The notes under the pieces: model-generated
The model's database searches: none
Seen by the model: the letters and a program-made list of their open reading frames with translations, nothing else
What the model was told of the DNA's origin: nothing
Program-made: the position numbers and the translations under genes
Part shown: positions 8,776 through 17,045 of the stretch, piece by piece
Layout of the letters: each line of letters starts with the position of its first letter
Position numbering within the stretch: the first letter of the stretch is position 1
NCBI GenBank assembly: GCA_964517125.1
Contig: CAZFBD010000001.1
Coordinates: 8,277 to 52,106 of the forward strand
DNA: 43,830 nucleotides
Reading direction: 5' to 3'
DNA from: an uncultured Acidimicrobiales bacterium
GTDB taxonomy: Bacteria > Actinomycetota > Acidimicrobiia > Acidimicrobiales > SHLQ01

Positions 8776-11700
8776 CTACCTCTGCCGCGGTCGGCCCGAA
8801 ATCGCCACACCGCCATACAGCGTCCCGAGCATGATCGCCGCGGCTGCAGCGAGTACCACGAAGTCGGCGCTCCGCTCGCCGCTGCTGATGGCCAGAACGT
8901 CGGGCTTGGGGAGTGCCGCTGCGACATGAATCGTCGACGACGAATCTGCCAGCAGAGGTCCGATGTGTGTGCAACGCCAGGTTGTTCCGTTGGCATCGCA
9001 CTCCCATTCCTCCTGCGATTCGGCAGTGAGCTCCGCTGCCGCTGGTAGGTGAAGTTCGACGGTCGAGCCGTGGTCAAGGTCGATGTCGGTGAGGTTGTCG
9101 ACACGGAATGCGTACCCAACCGTGGATGCGGTTCCGACGTCGGTATAGACCGCGGCGTCTTCGAGCGATACTTCCAGAACCCGATCGGTATGCGCATCGG
9201 GACTGGTCCAGGTGAACGTTGTGGCCACCGCAGCGGAATCGAACAATTCGCCCGGCGTCGCAAAGATGACGGCGCCAGCCACCTCCTGCACGATCTCCTG
9301 ATCGGCGACCTCTCCCCCGCTGGCATCCTGCTCGGAGTTCTCTTCCTGCGCGTCTTCGGTGTTGCCCGAGTCGGCGACCTCCGTTTCACCGTCTTCGAGT
9401 TCGTCACTGTCGAGGTCTCCACCACCGACCGCTTCGGTGGTCGACGTGGCCGAGGTGCCGGCATCGGCGGGCTCGGTCGTCGATGCCGTTTCGGGATCAG
9501 CGGTTGCAAGGATCGTTGTCGTCGTCACGGCGTCGTCGGCAGCAGGCACCGTAGTGGTCTCTGGCAGATCTTCGACAATGGTGGTCGGAGCGGTGGACGT
9601 CGGCTGGTTTGCGGCCGCGACGGTTGTGGAGGTTGTTCCCGGGGGCTCCGAGGACGTCGATGTCGAAGCGACAACCGTCGAAGACGTGGATGCCACTGAG
9701 GCAACGGTGCCAGGTGCTGCCGTTGTTGATACCGATCCATCGGCGGTGTCTTGAAGGGCAGCGGCCTCGTCGTCGACCGCATCGGGAACCGTCGTTTCGA
9801 CCGACTCGCCGGGCTCCGTGGGCGTCGTGACGCCGCCATTCGCAGACAGGCCGTTGGCGTTCTCGGCTGCGTCGAAAATCGTGGTCGGAGCCGCATTGGT
9901 GGACAAGGTTGCGCCGACCACGCTGGTCGTCGTTGTGGTCTCGCCCGCCGCAGCAGAGTCTGACGGAGCGTCCGCAAGCGCACCCGCGCCGGAGATCTCG
10001 AGATCTCCACCCGCCTCGGGCAGCGGTTCCACCGTGCCCGACGGAAGATGGTTCACTGAGTTCGCCGCCAGATTCACGGTTCGTTTGCTTCCGTCCGCGA
10101 GTCGAATCTGGAGTCGTACCGGCAGGACCTCGACGCCATCGCTGAACGGACGCCAGCTTCCGGCCTTGAACTCCACGATTCCTCCGGGCTCGTCGGCTCG
10201 AAGCGGAACGGTTTGAAACTCGGCCTCTGGAGCGACCGCCGCATTGATTCGGGTGAACTTCCGCAACCCATCGTGAAGAACCCGAAAGCCGATCGATGTC
10301 GGGAGGACTTCCCTTCGGACCTCTCCCTGCGAATCGGTCCGACCCATGAAAGTCCACCGCTGTGCGTTGAGGTCGACCTGCGTGCCAACGATTGGCTCGC
10401 CCGTCGAGTCGACGACTCGGATGATCGCCTCGACCGTTGACACCTGCACGTTGCGTTCCGATGCGAGATCCTGTCGAACCTGGCTCCGAAGCCCACCCCA
10501 GCTTACGCGGAACCTGGTTCGGACGGGAAGTAGTTCAGCTTCGAGATGGCCGGTGGCGTCGGTGGAGCCGAGCGCATCCCACTCGGAACCATGCACCTCG
10601 ATCGGCACGCCGACCAGCGGGGACCCGTCGAGGGACGCAACGGCAACGCTGGCGAGCACCGTTTGGAACCGGACGACCGGATCCTTGGCAATGTCCTGCC
10701 TGATCCGAACTCGCCGCTGGCCATGCGAGACGCGGAAGGAACGGGTCTGTGGGAGCAGCTCCGTCTGGATCTGGCCGGTCTCGTCCGTGGTCCCGAGTTC
10801 GCCCCAACCGGCGCTGTCCAGCTCCACGAGCGCACCAGCCAGCGGTGCACCGGTGGAGTCAGCAAAGTCGATGGTCACCGGAAGTGTCTGGAATCGAACG
10901 CTCGAATCGGCCGAGAGCTGTTGACGGATGGTTGTGCGGCCACCGTGCGCAGCCATGGCGAAGCGCACCCGTCCCGGCAGCATTTCCCCGCTCAACATCC
11001 CGTTTGCGTCGGTCGTTCCGAGCGAGATCCAGTCGTCACCGCGGTACTCCACCGCGCCGCCTTCGACCGGGGCTCCGGTGGAGTCGTGCAACGATACCTG
11101 GAACGGTGCTGTGGCAAAGGAGACGGCGTCGGTCTTGCGCAGATCGACCGTCTGCTCGGCTCGTACACCGTCGAGCGTCATGGTGAACGGGCGACGACTT
11201 GCAAGGATCTCGATGAACAACGCCCCGGTTTCATCGGTGACGCCAACCGGCTTCCAGGTGCCCGCACTTCGGAACTGGACCGCTCCGTCAGCCAAGGGCC
11301 CGCCTGAGGGATCCGTCAGCGAGATGCCGACTGCGATCGTGGAGAACTGCACCCGTGGTTCGGTGCCAAGATCCTGACGAATGACCTGCCGAATGTCCTG
11401 ATGGACGAGTTCGACCCGGGTCTTCTTGCCGGGCATCTGGCCCTCGACGCAGCCGTCCTCGCCGGTGACACCAATCGAGTGCCACGCTTCGTCGTACTGG
11501 AAGCCGGCTGACGCTCCCGCCAGCGGAGCTCCGGTCGAGGTTTGGAGGCAGACCGACGTGGTGGTGACGACATCGGCCAGTGCTGCTGGCGCCGCTGGGC
11601 CAGCGAACAGCACGACGACGCCAACGAACATCGCCGCAACAGATGCGACCTTGGTCAGCTTTCCTCGGGGCGCTCGAACCTCGAACCGGCTGGGGTCGAC

Positions 11701-13533
11701 GTCGTGCGCCTCCGTCTTCTCGGCATTCGTATGGTGCCCAACTGCGCAATACGCGATGAGTCCGGTGCGGACCGCAGGCGAGAGGTCACCGAACTGCAGC
11801 CCGACGCGCTGATGATCGCCGCGGTCCACCAGAGAGCGGACGACACCATCGAGTTCGAGGGTCTGTTCCGCATCGCTGTTCTCCGGAAGACGCAGGGTGA
11901 TCGGCACCCGTTGACCAAGTTCGAACGGACAGGAACTGCCGTGAAGATGCGAACCGAGCCCCTTGACCGCAAGGTCGACGACATGCACGAGATGGCCATC
12001 GATGACCGCCACGAGATCCGTGGAGAGTCGGAAACTGGCACGTCGCTGCTTTCGGCGGACGGCGACCTGCAGCACGTCGACCACAGCGACGATCACCATG
12101 AGGCCCACTCCCAAGGCGATGATGCGTCCGGACATGGAGAATCGGGGAAGGATTCGCGGCCAGATCAGGGTCAGTCCCCGTGCCACCACAGCGAGATCAA
12201 GAACGATCAGCACAACCGACGCCAGGCGCATCTTCTCGAGCGCGCCGAAGCCTGAACCAGATGTCTTGTAGAAGGCCACCACACGGCGACGAAGCCCGAG
12301 CACCGTAGCGAAGGCGTTGAGATCTGCCGCAAGTGTCCGCCACGCCTGTCGAGTCCAATCCCCACGCTCCATGGTTCCCCGCGCCAAAAGCCGGTTGGCA
12401 CGCACCATGAGGAGTTGTGCGGGTACCCAGACGGCCGCCCAAACACCGCCGGTCCCGCTGTAGGGAACCGCCCCTGTGAGGAGGATCGCGATCAACAACA
12501 GGGTCAGGCTCAGCTGGCGGACGCTGCTCGCAAATCCAAGGGCCAGCGCCAGGTGATCAAGTCGCTGGCGGCGACTCAGGCCAGCGTGACGCAGGGGGTT
12601 CTCGGGAGTGCGGAAGACCCGAAGCAGTTCGATTGCGGAGCGACGCCGAACCATCAGGTACGCCCCGAGCGAGTCCGGTGCGGCTGCGTGCACCACGACC
12701 GGTTCAGCGCAGTAGTGGCTCTTCCATCCGTTGCCCTGGAGGCGGATCATGGCTCGTTGCAGCGATGCCTGATCGTTTGGATCGAACCCGCCACTGCTGG
12801 CGATTGCAAGCGTCCGGACCATGGAACCACCGCCACGCCACGACGCCTCTCCCCTCGAACCAAGGCGGGGCTGAACGACCCGACTCTGGAAGGCGTCTTC
12901 GTCTCGCCCGCCTCGCAGGTGAGCGAAAGAGTCCGTGTTCAACTGGCCAATGCCGGCCTGTACGTAGGCCACGCCTGCGTCGGAAAACGTTGGGGCAAGC
13001 GCCTCGATGCAATTGGGCATCGGCACCTGCCCCGCTTCAAGCCAGAAGGCAAACGGGCTCGTTCGGGCCCCGGCCCAGAAGCCATCGACGTGGTTTCCCT
13101 CGGCGACCACGACGTCCACGTCGAAGCTCTGCGTGATTTCGAGCAGTTCCGGCCGTGCGGTCTGCATGGTCACGATCGTTCGACGGTGGTGACGGACGCT
13201 GCGGCAGCTCACCAGGGTTCGTTCCAGCTCCTCAGGCGTGTGGAACGTACACGTGACGACGATGTCGACGTCGCGATCAACGGTTTCGGGATGTGATTCA
13301 GGCTCTGCCTGCGGTGCTGATGTGTCCCACGACAGCATCGCCCGGAGGCCGAACTGTGCGAGACCCCAGCCCTCGAGAACGAGGAACGGGACAGCGATCC
13401 ACCAGGTGCCGAGGCCACCGACGAGGAGCCATCCAAGATGCACGATGCCAACGGCACTCGCTGCCGTCGCGTGCATGCGAATGCTGCGATCTTTCTGTTG
13501 TACCGCGGCCGCCCGCGTCGGTACCGTTGCCAT
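8776..13533 (-). CDS. 1585-aa fusion: degenerate BcsA-like GT2 + TM helices + PilZ + internal signal/TM + 75-aa repeats + Thr/acidic stalk + C-terminal membrane or sortase-like anchor
   Basis: Aligns by eye to the BcsA scaffold (VDIVV, VAYVQ, GGF, GWKSHY, APDSLGAYL). PilZ-like RRASFR...DLAVKG. Repeat boundaries at 11337, 11109, 10884, 10659, 10434 and 10209. C-terminus LAISSG + hydrophobic stretch + RPRQR. Confidence 0.85.
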   Translation of the reverse strand: MATVPTRAAAVQQKDRSIRMHATAASAVGIVHLGWLLVGGLGTWWIAVPFLVLEGWGLAQFGLRAMLSWDTSAPQAEPESHPETVDRDVDIVVTCTFHTPEELERTLVSCRSVRHHRRTIVTMQTARPELLEITQSFDVDVVVAEGNHVDGFWAGARTSPFAFWLEAGQVPMPNCIEALAPTFSDAGVAYVQAGIGQLNTDSFAHLRGGRDEDAFQSRVVQPRLGSRGEASWRGGGSMVRTLAIASSGGFDPNDQASLQRAMIRLQGNGWKSHYCAEPVVVHAAAPDSLGAYLMVRRRSAIELLRVFRTPENPLRHAGLSRRQRLDHLALALGFASSVRQLSLTLLLIAILLTGAVPYSGTGGVWAAVWVPAQLLMVRANRLLARGTMERGDWTRQAWRTLAADLNAFATVLGLRRRVVAFYKTSGSGFGALEKMRLASVVLIVLDLAVVARGLTLIWPRILPRFSMSGRIIALGVGLMVIVAVVDVLQVAVRRKQRRASFRLSTDLVAVIDGHLVHVVDLAVKGLGSHLHGSSCPFELGQRVPITLRLPENSDAEQTLELDGVVRSLVDRGDHQRVGLQFGDLSPAVRTGLIAYCAVGHHTNAEKTEAHDVDPSRFEVRAPRGKLTKVASVAAMFVGVVVLFAGPAAPAALADVVTTTSVCLQTSTGAPLAGASAGFQYDEAWHSIGVTGEDGCVEGQMPGKKTRVELVHQDIRQVIRQDLGTEPRVQFSTIAVGISLTDPSGGPLADGAVQFRSAGTWKPVGVTDETGALFIEILASRRPFTMTLDGVRAEQTVDLRKTDAVSFATAPFQVSLHDSTGAPVEGGAVEYRGDDWISLGTTDANGMLSGEMLPGRVRFAMAAHGGRTTIRQQLSADSSVRFQTLPVTIDFADSTGAPLAGALVELDSAGWGELGTTDETGQIQTELLPQTRSFRVSHGQRRVRIRQDIAKDPVVRFQTVLASVAVASLDGSPLVGVPIEVHGSEWDALGSTDATGHLEAELLPVRTRFRVSWGGLRSQVRQDLASERNVQVSTVEAIIRVVDSTGEPIVGTQVDLNAQRWTFMGRTDSQGEVRREVLPTSIGFRVLHDGLRKFTRINAAVAPEAEFQTVPLRADEPGGIVEFKAGSWRPFSDGVEVLPVRLQIRLADGSKRTVNLAANSVNHLPSGTVEPLPEAGGDLEISGAGALADAPSDSAAAGETTTTTSVVGATLSTNAAPTTIFDAAENANGLSANGGVTTPTEPGESVETTVPDAVDDEAAALQDTADGSVSTTAAPGTVASVASTSSTVVASTSTSSEPPGTTSTTVAAANQPTSTAPTTIVEDLPETTTVPAADDAVTTTTILATADPETASTTEPADAGTSATSTTEAVGGGDLDSDELEDGETEVADSGNTEDAQEENSEQDASGGEVADQEIVQEVAGAVIFATPGELFDSAAVATTFTWTSPDAHTDRVLEVSLEDAAVYTDVGTASTVGYAFRVDNLTDIDLDHGSTVELHLPAAAELTAESQEEWECDANGTTWRCTHIGPLLADSSSTIHVAAALPKPDVLAISSGERSADFVVLAAAAAIMLGTLYGGVAISGRPRQR

Positions 13534-13570
13534 GTTCCGCCATTCCCGCCAAGAGATTCTGCGTGCTTGA

Positions 13571-13597
13571 GTCGGTCACATGACGACACGGGGTGAG
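13571..13597 (-). promoter_or_regulatory. Candidate sigma28/FliA/WhiG-type promoter for the 1585-aa gene
   Basis: Minus strand CTCA-N17-ACCGAC, 37 nt upstream of the ATG; weakest of the four matches. Confidence 0.45.
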
Positions 13598-13639
13598 GGC
13601 CGATCGACCCTTATCCAGACGTATGGAATTGGAACCCGC

Positions 13640-14254
13640 TCAGTGGTCGAACACCGGAGCAGCCACGGGCCTGAAGCTGACATCGTCTGTGGACATGTCG
13701 GGCAGATGGTGCGTGCGAGCGGTTCGCCGCGTGTGGCCACCCCGAACCACGCGTTCCAACCCGGAAATCGGACCGGTCGGGTTGACTCGCTGCTCGTCTC
13801 TGTGGAACGTGGGGTCGTAGAAGTCTGCGCACCACACGGCCTGTGCCGTGATCGTGTGATGCATCGATGCACTTGCCCACTGGGCCTCGGTTGGGAGGCT
13901 GCTGGACTGCCACCGGCAGAACTCGCTGGCGTCGTACCAGCTCACCTGCGCCACGGCTGACTGGCTCTGGGCGGACGGATTGTTGAGACCTTGTGGGTGA
14001 CGCCAATCGGCGCCAGCCGTGAGCAGGTAGTCGCCGCCAGAGCGCACGAAACCCGTTCCGGCCTCCTCGGCTGTGGTGATGAACCCCGTGTCATCAACGA
14101 AAATAGCGAACTGTTCCACGGTGACCGGGTGCGCGGCCAATCGGAACGAGCCGACCGTGACGAGCCGTGGTGGGCCTTCGTCATCGTCGGATCGTCCCGC
14201 AAGGGCCTGCGATCCCATTTCAAACCGTTGTGTGTCTATCGGTAGCCAGACCAT
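13640..14254 (-). CDS. Short formylglycine-generating enzyme (SUMF1/EgtB/PvdO) fold protein
   Basis: FEMGS, EGPPRLVTVGSF, PVTVEQF..FV..TG..TTAE, GADWRHPQG, VSWYDA..FC.W, LPTEAQW, WCAD, RVVRGG; the catalytic Cys pair is absent. Confidence 0.8.
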   Translation of the reverse strand: MVWLPIDTQRFEMGSQALAGRSDDDEGPPRLVTVGSFRLAAHPVTVEQFAIFVDDTGFITTAEEAGTGFVRSGGDYLLTAGADWRHPQGLNNPSAQSQSAVAQVSWYDASEFCRWQSSSLPTEAQWASASMHHTITAQAVWCADFYDPTFHRDEQRVNPTGPISGLERVVRGGHTRRTARTHHLPDMSTDDVSFRPVAAPVFDH

Positions 14255-14260
14255 GGCTGG

Positions 14261-14806
14261 CTACGACAGCAGCGCTTCGACCTTTTCGATCAACCCATCT
14301 TCACCGAGGGAAGAGATGAGCACCTCGACCTCGCCGGCATCGTCGATGAAGACGAACGCAGGCTGGCTGGTGACACCGAATTCACGCCAGATGGCGACAT
14401 CCTCGTCGGCGATGTGGTCGAACGCTTCGACCCCGTAGGTGGATACGAAGTCCTGCATCTCCGACAGATCATCTCTGCCGGCGACTCCCACGAAGTTCAC
14501 GTCGGTTCCGAATTGTTCCTGTACCGATGCGACCGCACCGGCTTCTCTTTTGCATGTGCTTCACCAGGGTGCCCAAAACCACAACACCGTGTCCTGGCCC
14601 TCGAGGCTGCCAAAGTCCAGCTGGCCGCCGGCGACGGTGTCGTAGACGACCGGCACGGCTTCGGCTGAGCTCTGTTCCTCGGAGGCTGGCGCCTCGGTGG
14701 TGGTTTCAGGAGCCGAGGTGCCAGCAGATTCAACTGCGTCTGCACCACCGCACGCTGCGAGAGCAACGGCGAAGGTGGCAGCAGCAAGACTGCGACGAAG
14801 GCTCAT
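14261..14806 (-). CDS. Probable selenoprotein: TlpA/DsbE-like thioredoxin lipoprotein with WAPW-U-STC (Sec at 14561-14563)
   Basis: ORFs 14561..14863 and 14261..14500 share a frame: MSLRR...VALAAC (lipobox)...DTVLWFWAPW-TGA-STCKREAGAVASVQEQFGTDVNFVGVAGRD...FGVTSQPAFVFID. Confidence 0.88.
14523..14542 (-). promoter_or_regulatory. Candidate bacterial SECIS hairpin
   Basis: Minus strand GCCGGUGC-[GGUC]-GCAUCGGU; the loop starts 26 nt after the UGA and begins with G. Confidence 0.7.
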
Positions 14807-14919
14807 GAGGAAAATGGTAGCGCCCGCAGTGCGGCACACCCGGTCGGTTTCCCGAATGTTCACAACCTCTTACCTGCGCCCGGCGTTCAGTAACATCTGG
14901 CGAGAGCGAGAGGGATGAC

Positions 14920-17045
<2,126 letters not shown>

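Follow-up and report, generated by a model that had tools for sequence, protein, structure and literature searches.

What does the TGA at 14563..14561 mean, which separates two in-frame open reading frames (ORFs) on the minus strand of a contig from an uncultured Acidimicrobiales bacterium? Both ORFs lie in the window, by which we mean the whole stretch of DNA analysed here, 43,830 nt long (C1:8277-52106) and taken from a genome of 158 contigs that is 94.9% complete. The first ORF (14561..14863) encodes 100 amino acids ending in VLWFWAPW directly before the TGA, and the same frame continues downstream into a second ORF of 79 amino acids (14261..14500, minus strand). Translation of 14806..14261 with the TGA read as selenocysteine (U) joins the two into one protein of 181 residues, with U82 in the motif WAPW-U-STC. 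A first-pass annotation had proposed such a single gene split at the TGA, encoding an exported DsbE/DsbF/TlpA-like lipoprotein with selenocysteine first in a UxxC motif, with its LAAC lipobox, SQP cis-Pro motif and a GGUC-loop hairpin all intact; each of these sequence elements is present as described, and the reading built on them is supported below. We put the probability that 14806..14261 is a single genuine selenoprotein gene at roughly 0.87, a figure that covers its identity, its decoding and its selenium-sulfur chemistry jointly and excludes the direction of electron flow.

Throughout the genus the TGA keeps the same place in the gene. A six-frame search of 40 related genomes together with the window's own genome gave matches in 41/41, and the 20 best loci were extracted. 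TGA occupies the identical codon in 19 of these 20, all 19 from the same genus, with protein identities to the query of 43-73% (match identities); the twentieth locus (L029), which belongs to a different family in the order, carries TGC at the U82 codon. Among the matches listed, CxxC occupies the U82 position in every one of the 119 full-length database homologues. The alignment of cysteine and TGA homologues that the first-pass annotation had suggested as a check thus came out in its favour. One search for related loci returned only cysteine forms, from Lentzea, Mycobacterium, Streptomyces and Ilumatobacteraceae, because the motif used in it had been back-translated with cysteine. In public gene calls the product of this gene is present only as a truncated call of 100 amino acids (P0002) that ends at the TGA.

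Selection on the reading frame is about the same on either side of the TGA. Measured against the two nearest orthologues (L013 and L014), the ratio of nonsynonymous to synonymous substitution rates (dN/dS) is ~0.11 over the 30 codons before the TGA (dN 0.12, dS 1.13) and ~0.14 over the 96 codons after it (dN 0.14, dS 1.0), and because the two values are so similar we take the downstream frame to be translated. These ratios refer to L013 and L014 only, as the comparisons with L016 and L021 were invalid (ungapped, with indels) and dS was saturated for L015, L017 and L019.

Behind the TGA, within the coding sequence, lies a hairpin of the selenocysteine insertion sequence (SECIS) type (14523..14542, minus strand). 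Read from 14542 to 14523, it consists of GCCGGUGC, a GGUC loop (14534..14531) and GCAUCGGU, forming eight pairs, and its first nucleotide falls 18 nt after the UGA. RNAalifold predicted this helix without guidance from the 19 orthologues (columns 25-32/37-44); the GGUC loop is invariant, and pair 4 is mismatched in most relatives. Among the orthologues 90% of cells are paired, a share that drops to 26-53% on sliding the 3′ partner by 1-3 columns, and three of the eight pairs show compensatory changes on both sides. With 20 paralogues added (the UxxU forms described below; 39 sequences), 87% of cells are paired as opposed to 29-56% in the slid controls, and compensatory changes extend to five of the eight pairs. 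The covariation score was reached by none of 500 shuffles. Some compensatory changes alter amino acids (A-V-A to T-V-V), implying that RNA pairing has been kept at the protein's cost. The cysteine-form relative L029 has no such hairpin, and RNAfold of 49 nt forms the hairpin at -13.8 kcal/mol. The element resembles the SECIS of Escherichia coli fdhF, as that element is generally described, in being a hairpin within the coding sequence just past the UGA, with a GGUC apical loop and a G-C-rich upper stem; the distance from UGA to loop is ~8 nt longer than in fdhF. The other selenoprotein genes that we examined in the genome (selD and a paralogue on contig C17) have different hairpins.

The genome also holds the complete set of selenocysteine genes: selA (TIGR00474, 377.3 bits) and the adjoining selB (TIGR00475, 279.1 bits) on contig C11, selD (TIGR00476, 369.6 bits), all three above their cut-offs, and a single copy of the selenocysteine tRNA, selC, on contig C36 (tRNA-SeC(tca), found with ARAGORN, which found no tRNA anywhere in the window). 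A genome devoid of this machinery, which the first-pass annotation had named as grounds for giving up the selenoprotein reading, is therefore not what we found. The selD gene (G000:C1:260679-261602, L001; G000 is the window's own genome) itself has one in-frame TGA, in G-A-G-U-G-C-K, followed by a strong hairpin of a different kind.

Matches to the lipoprotein in related genomes mostly have in-frame TGA codons. Within the window's family a search at E <= 1e-25 reached 37 of 42 genomes and gave 82 matches, of which 54 have one TGA, 23 have two and five have none; in an even sample of the order (201 genomes), 42 match at E <= 1e-20, with TGA in 52 of 59 matches and none in the remaining seven. 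Verification of the TGA position covered the 19 orthologues, the paralogues of the window's own genome and 20 paralogues with two TGAs, and to that extent the counts suggest that the selenocysteine form is the rule for this lipoprotein across the order. All 20 of the two-TGA paralogues that were fetched (G000:C24:39911-40324, which is L131, with L113-L130 and L132) read W-[FY]-W-[AS]-P-W-U-P-F-U, a UxxU motif whose two selenocysteines might join in a diselenide, and have the same hairpin, a single downstream GGUC element serving both TGAs. UxxU copies stand in tandem, two or three together, in several genomes (for example at G010:C187, G017:C253, G006:C395, G007:C38 and G012:C10). The window's own genome has four more selenocysteine paralogues, all with lipoboxes: the UxxU form on C24 and UxxC forms at C85:10974-11411, C76:13054-13512 and C17:160-636, the last with a different hairpin (7-bp stem, GUU loop). 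A cysteine paralogue at C73:8651-9163 likewise has a lipobox. On a tree of selenocysteine and cysteine forms, which is unrooted and weakly resolved, the two states change twice, against a shuffled mean of ~20.

What protein does the joined frame specify? The complete gene (14261..14806, minus strand) comprises 181 codons and a TAG stop when the TGA is translated as U. We chose the ATG at 14806..14804 as its start, as an equivalent Met, just ahead of the signal peptide, begins the orthologues. Residues 1-18 form a putative signal peptide, followed by the candidate lipidation Cys of the lipobox L16-A17-A18-C19 (signal peptide and lipobox together MSLRRSLAAATFAVALAAC, 14750..14806, the lipobox at 14761..14750); the assignment was read from the sequence and its conservation without a signal-peptide predictor. 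All 19 of the 19 orthologues have a lipobox-type motif with CG after it, and both lgt and lspA, for lipoprotein processing, are in the genome. Next comes a low-complexity tether rich in Ala, Glu, Thr and Ser (residues 20-50; 14657..14749), which the AlphaFold2 model gives a predicted local distance difference test score (pLDDT) of 55-69 and which differs in length and sequence across the orthologues. Residues 51-181 (14264..14656) form a predicted thioredoxin-fold domain of DsbF/DsbE (TlpA-like) type, an assignment on which Pfam, phmmer, AlphaFold2 and Foldseek agree.

Within this domain lie the candidate active-site residues: U82 (14561..14563), the predicted attacking residue of U-S-T-C, the resolving Cys85 (TGC, 14552..14554), which is invariant in the alignment and corresponds to the latter Cys of CPTC in DsbF, and the cis-Pro motif S147-Q148-P149 (14368..14360), assigned by alignment with Q-Q-P of DsbF. 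The 38 aligned homologues show no variation at Cys19, W76-W81, position 82 (C82), C85 or Q148. Pfam matches above cut-offs were AhpC-TSA, Redoxin, Thioredoxin_8, Thioredoxin and Thioredoxin_2, the best of them PF00578 (AhpC/TSA; 51.8 bits, cut-off 26). In the Protein Data Bank phmmer found DsbF of Mycobacterium tuberculosis first (3IOS, E 2.4e-31), then DsbE/MPT53 (1LU4, 3.3e-22), then ResA (~1e-9). The AlphaFold2 model, with pLDDT 87.1 overall and >92 over residues 51-181, places U82 immediately ahead of helix 83-99. By Foldseek it matches 3IOS with a target-normalised template modelling (TM) score of 0.91, a root-mean-square deviation of 1.1 Å and 44% identity, and 1LU4 with a TM score of 0.88 and 37% identity, with ResA at 0.85; the modelled fold has the N-terminal hairpin extension seen in solved DsbF and DsbE. 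We conclude that the protein is, as predicted from sequence and model, a lipid-anchored, exported DsbF/DsbE-like thiol:disulfide oxidoreductase with selenocysteine as the attacking residue. Assignment as a peroxiredoxin proper was considered and rejected: the peroxidatic motif of those enzymes is P-x-x-x-T/S-x-x-C, and the active site here reads W-A-P-W-U-S-T-C.

Comparison with characterised proteins places the gene most closely beside M. tuberculosis DsbF (Rv1677) and DsbE (MPT53, Rv2878c), which share its fold, domain length, W-F-W-x-P-W-[C/U]-x-x-C context, Q-P cis-Pro loop and exported location, the last predicted for the present protein. The orthologues have the dipeptide PT, like DsbF, whereas the UxxU paralogues have PF, like DsbE. 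The present protein differs from both in that the attacking Cys is replaced by selenocysteine, a replacement predicted from the UGA and the SECIS hairpin, and in its host, which is marine, with Actinomycetota-type relatives, and not a mycobacterium; its biochemistry is here predicted from sequence. ResA, TlpA, CcmG (DsbE) and StoA are alike in their TlpA-like fold, their membrane tether, which is predicted here, and CxxC at a helix N-terminus (TM 0.77-0.86), but they are only 19-24% identical, ResB was not found in the genome, and none of the NCBIfam equivalog models comes near its cut-off: ResA 48.3 bits against 170, StoA 41.6 against 210, TlpA 34.2 against 230 and DsbE 30.5 against 123. Two models of known selenoproteins, which have in common with the present protein a thioredoxin fold and selenocysteine in the redox motif, also fall short of their cut-offs. 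NF041054, for ResA-like proteins with WAxxUGC, scores 29.8 bits against a cut-off of 300, the motif here being U-S-T-C and not U-G-C; NF040769, for SelL-related proteins, scores 16 bits against 120.

As a category the protein is not new, since thioredoxin-fold selenoproteins of PF00578 with a UxxC motif have been catalogued since 2004-2008. In the portions consulted, one survey lists a ‘Prx-like thiol:disulfide oxidoreductase’ of pfam00578 with UxxC among 25 bacterial selenoprotein families (PMC1794560), the Global Ocean Sampling survey reports 225 sequences of ‘Prx-like 1’ and a UxxU motif in another Prx-like family (PMC2398784, Table 2), and a 2026 review describes UxxC/UxxU proteins with one or two selenocysteines as ‘predicted with high confidence’ (PMC13188914). 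The present protein shares with that family its best Pfam match, PF00578, and the UxxC motif, and by these two features it would be a member; its closest solved relatives, however, are DsbF and DsbE and not peroxiredoxins. The terms ‘lipoprotein’ and ‘periplasm’ were not found in the parts of these three papers that were searched. A 2026 preprint describes, in the text available, selenocysteine machinery in another marine actinobacterial order (10.64898/2026.04.03.716425). Literature searches on selenoproteins in Acidimicrobiia found nothing on this lipoprotein family, and searches pairing selenocysteine with DsbF, DsbE, TlpA or ResA gave no selenocysteine form of these proteins among the titles listed.

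From these parts a working sequence can be proposed. SelB with selenocysteinyl-tRNA(Sec) would bind the GGUC-loop hairpin 18 nt downstream and deliver selenocysteine to UGA codon 82, after which translation would run for 99 codons more. The Sec-type (export) signal peptide with its LAAC lipobox would be processed by Lgt and LspA, so that Cys19 would anchor the domain, by way of a linker of ~30 residues, on the outer side of the membrane. There the U82 selenolate, at the N-terminus of helix 83-99, would attack substrate disulfides or, once oxidised, be attacked itself, cycling through a selenenylsulfide with Cys85, as is expected from the family.

In which direction would electrons flow? By analogy with M. 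tuberculosis DsbF and DsbE in vitro, we lean slightly towards a disulfide-donating or disulfide-exchanging role in vivo. We do so because neither VKOR (0/26 genus genomes) nor a Thioredoxin_4-type DsbA (PF13462, none above cut-off in the same 26) was found in the genus, absences that rest on Pfam models and mostly incomplete genomes. DsbB is present in five of the 26 (G004, G008, G009, G011 and G013), whose orthologues cluster together in the tree, and not in the window's own genome. The nearest characterised relatives point the same way, Mt-DsbE and Mt-DsbF having supported oxidative folding of hirudin and shown no reduction of insulin, according to the portion of the report available (PMC3853704).

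The same selenoprotein could instead be a reductant, supplied with electrons by the membrane protein CcdA and handing them on to exported targets, for instance assembly factors for cytochromes or copper centres, oxidised methionine reductases or mis-oxidised proteins, in the manner of TlpA, ResA, CcmG and the pneumococcal Etrx lipoproteins; we regard this as a serious possibility that falls short of an even chance. The genome has one CcdA/DsbD_TM gene (40.4 bits, above cut-off), and such proteins are the usual electron donors of reducing TlpA/ResA-type proteins. Replacing Cys by selenocysteine usually lowers the redox potential, which also counts against an oxidant. The modelled architecture is equally near to ResA (TM 0.85), CcmG and Etrx, and either DsbD or Rv2877c has been proposed as the membrane partner of DsbE/DsbF in mycobacteria (PMC3853704, in the part seen). 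What holds us back is that the CcdA gene has its own partner, a Cys-type, membrane-anchored TlpA-like protein encoded 8 nt downstream, that no selenocysteine paralogue adjoins it, that ResB was not found in the genome and that the closest characterised proteins oxidise in vitro. At the orthologue loci we found no conserved DsbD or Rv2877c-like neighbour, nor did synteny link any other conserved redox partner to the gene. The CcdA locus itself (G000:C45:8418-9053; L112 1396-2205 and 774-1388) encodes CcdA/DsbD_TM followed by the TlpA-like protein with F-F-A-S-W-C-T-A-C, and on its sequence appears to be a separate, conventional reducing pair.

Within the oxidant reading a bolder version can be framed, namely that DsbF-like selenium lipoproteins are the lineage's main extracytoplasmic disulfide catalysts and are recharged directly by O2 or peroxide in place of a quinone-linked DsbB or VKOR. 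It draws on the presence of several such lipoproteins in one genome, both UxxC and U-P-F-U forms, on the rarity of DsbB, on the lack of VKOR matches and of Thioredoxin_4-type DsbA above cut-off, on DSBA-family copies without signal peptides and on the order-wide predominance of the selenocysteine form, and we consider it unlikely. Its chemistry is argued by analogy from small diselenides and selenocysteine-substituted proteins: selenols are quickly reoxidised by air, selenium speeds thiol oxidation and disulfide shuffling, and the idea mirrors the catalysis of aerobic oxidative folding by small diselenides in vitro (PMC5514408, as far as consulted).

The three DSBA-family copies inspected in the genome are without signal peptides, a point in favour of the oxidant or exchange role, and two of them are of selenocysteine type. 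These two PF01323 genes (G000:C4:77113-77685 and C15:49608-50006) have an in-frame TGA in U-P-W-C and are probably cytoplasmic. DSBA-family matches with one TGA occur in nearly all 26 genus genomes.

Could U82 serve a surface thiol peroxidase of the glutathione peroxidase or peroxiredoxin kind, its selenenic acid being resolved by Cys85? AhpC/TSA is the top Pfam match, the organism comes from oxic seawater, and selenocysteine is the catalytic residue of glutathione peroxidases. We nevertheless judge this improbable: the active site W-x-x-W-[C/U]-x-x-C is of the thiol-disulfide type shared with DsbF, DsbE and ResA, and every one of the nearest structures is a thiol:disulfide oxidoreductase, with no peroxiredoxin-like hit before Bcp1 (3drn) at rank 46.

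Several points weigh against the selenoprotein reading as a whole. Selenium incorporation and expression are predictions from the sequence, and no RNA run is among the sequencing runs listed for this stretch. Two Logan assemblies of seawater metagenomes match the stretch without a difference, and either may be the source of this DNA; no independent reads cover the codon, and a third run leaves 14513..14640 uncovered. Folded as a single sequence, the 67 nt around the UGA take another minimum-free-energy structure (z -1.34), and at gathering thresholds no Rfam model matches this hairpin or anything else in the window. Nor does the genome as a whole show an excess of the GGUC motif behind TGA codons: a scan for GGUC hairpins behind TGA codons found 13 at the spacing of this gene and 5-11 at other spacings, and four of the 13 are paralogues of this lipoprotein, so the hairpin is specific to the family and not a genome-wide signature. 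Finally, as none of the curated NCBIfam models for ResA, TlpA, DsbE and StoA reached its cut-off, the functional subfamily depends on similarity to DsbF and DsbE.

Were translation to end for good at the TGA, we would be looking at a pseudogene or at a pair of small, independent ORFs, and the public gene calls do terminate there; yet a TGA kept at a single codon in 19/19 orthologues of 43-73% identity, an intact downstream frame under purifying selection, a covarying hairpin behind the codon and a model in which a stop at U82 would delete the whole fold past strand 73-78 make this highly improbable. Equally remote is the possibility that suppression or an altered code inserts Trp, Cys or Gly at the UGA, or that the TGA was misassembled from TGC: selenium in the protein is a prediction and both agreeing assemblies may be the window's own source, but the genome has the full selenocysteine machinery, the TGA replaces the redox Cys specifically with a SelB-type hairpin behind it, the same TGA in 18 other genomes rules out an assembly error, and TGA serves as a stop in ordinary genes of the window.

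The selenoprotein reading has consequences for annotation. This gene and dozens of its relatives are truncated in public gene calls, leaving a common group of marine actinobacteria under-annotated in both its selenoproteome and its surface redox machinery. The gene offers a clean case of a selenoprotein that is predicted to be exported by the Sec route and anchored by lipid and whose SECIS element is well supported, and, together with the UxxU paralogues, a natural system for asking what selenium contributes to a disulfide catalyst in oxic seawater.

Two genes follow the selenoprotein gene in the same orientation. An FGE-sulfatase-domain gene (13640..14254, minus strand; 204 aa; PF03781, 3.7e-26, profile positions 12-122 of 255) starts 6 nt past the selenoprotein stop and lacks a signal peptide; tblastn found no match to it in the two syntenic relatives, L013 and L014, and this short gene may be a recent insertion or a remnant. 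Beyond it, 8776..13533 (minus strand) encodes a protein of 1585 aa with glycosyltransferase family 2 (GT2; Glyco_trans_2_3) and PilZ domains, ~8 repeats of ~90 residues, a Thr/Ser/Ala-rich stretch and a C-terminal hydrophobic segment. The first-pass annotation had called this a giant adhesin and implied a functional link between the selenoprotein and both downstream genes. Their shared orientation was read correctly, but a conserved functional link is not supported, as the FGE-like gene is missing from L013 and L014 and gene contexts differ in more distant relatives. Nor does the adhesin label survive: Pfam found no adhesin domain, and the one MG4 match, on one of the repeats, is marginal (26.8 bits, cut-off 24.7; no single stretch passes by itself). 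On its sequence the protein looks less like a classical adhesin than like a polysaccharide synthase that is controlled by cyclic di-GMP and has surface repeats fused to it. Only in L013 and L014 is the GT2-PilZ gene the immediate downstream neighbour of the orthologue, and it is to these two loci that the methylmalonyl-CoA mutase and GT2-PilZ neighbours are common; in L015-L021 a convergent HlyIII-family gene adjoins the orthologue. Several apparently conserved neighbouring ORFs were rejected as antisense artefacts with no Pfam hit. A scan of 13300..15100 for promoter and terminator consensus sequences found none.

A scan of the whole window for other redox motifs split by TGA was too noisy to interpret. 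At ~20304 on the minus strand a very stable hairpin (-34.8 kcal/mol over 46 nt) comes after a TGA; the simplest reading of the two is a stop codon and a terminator-like structure.

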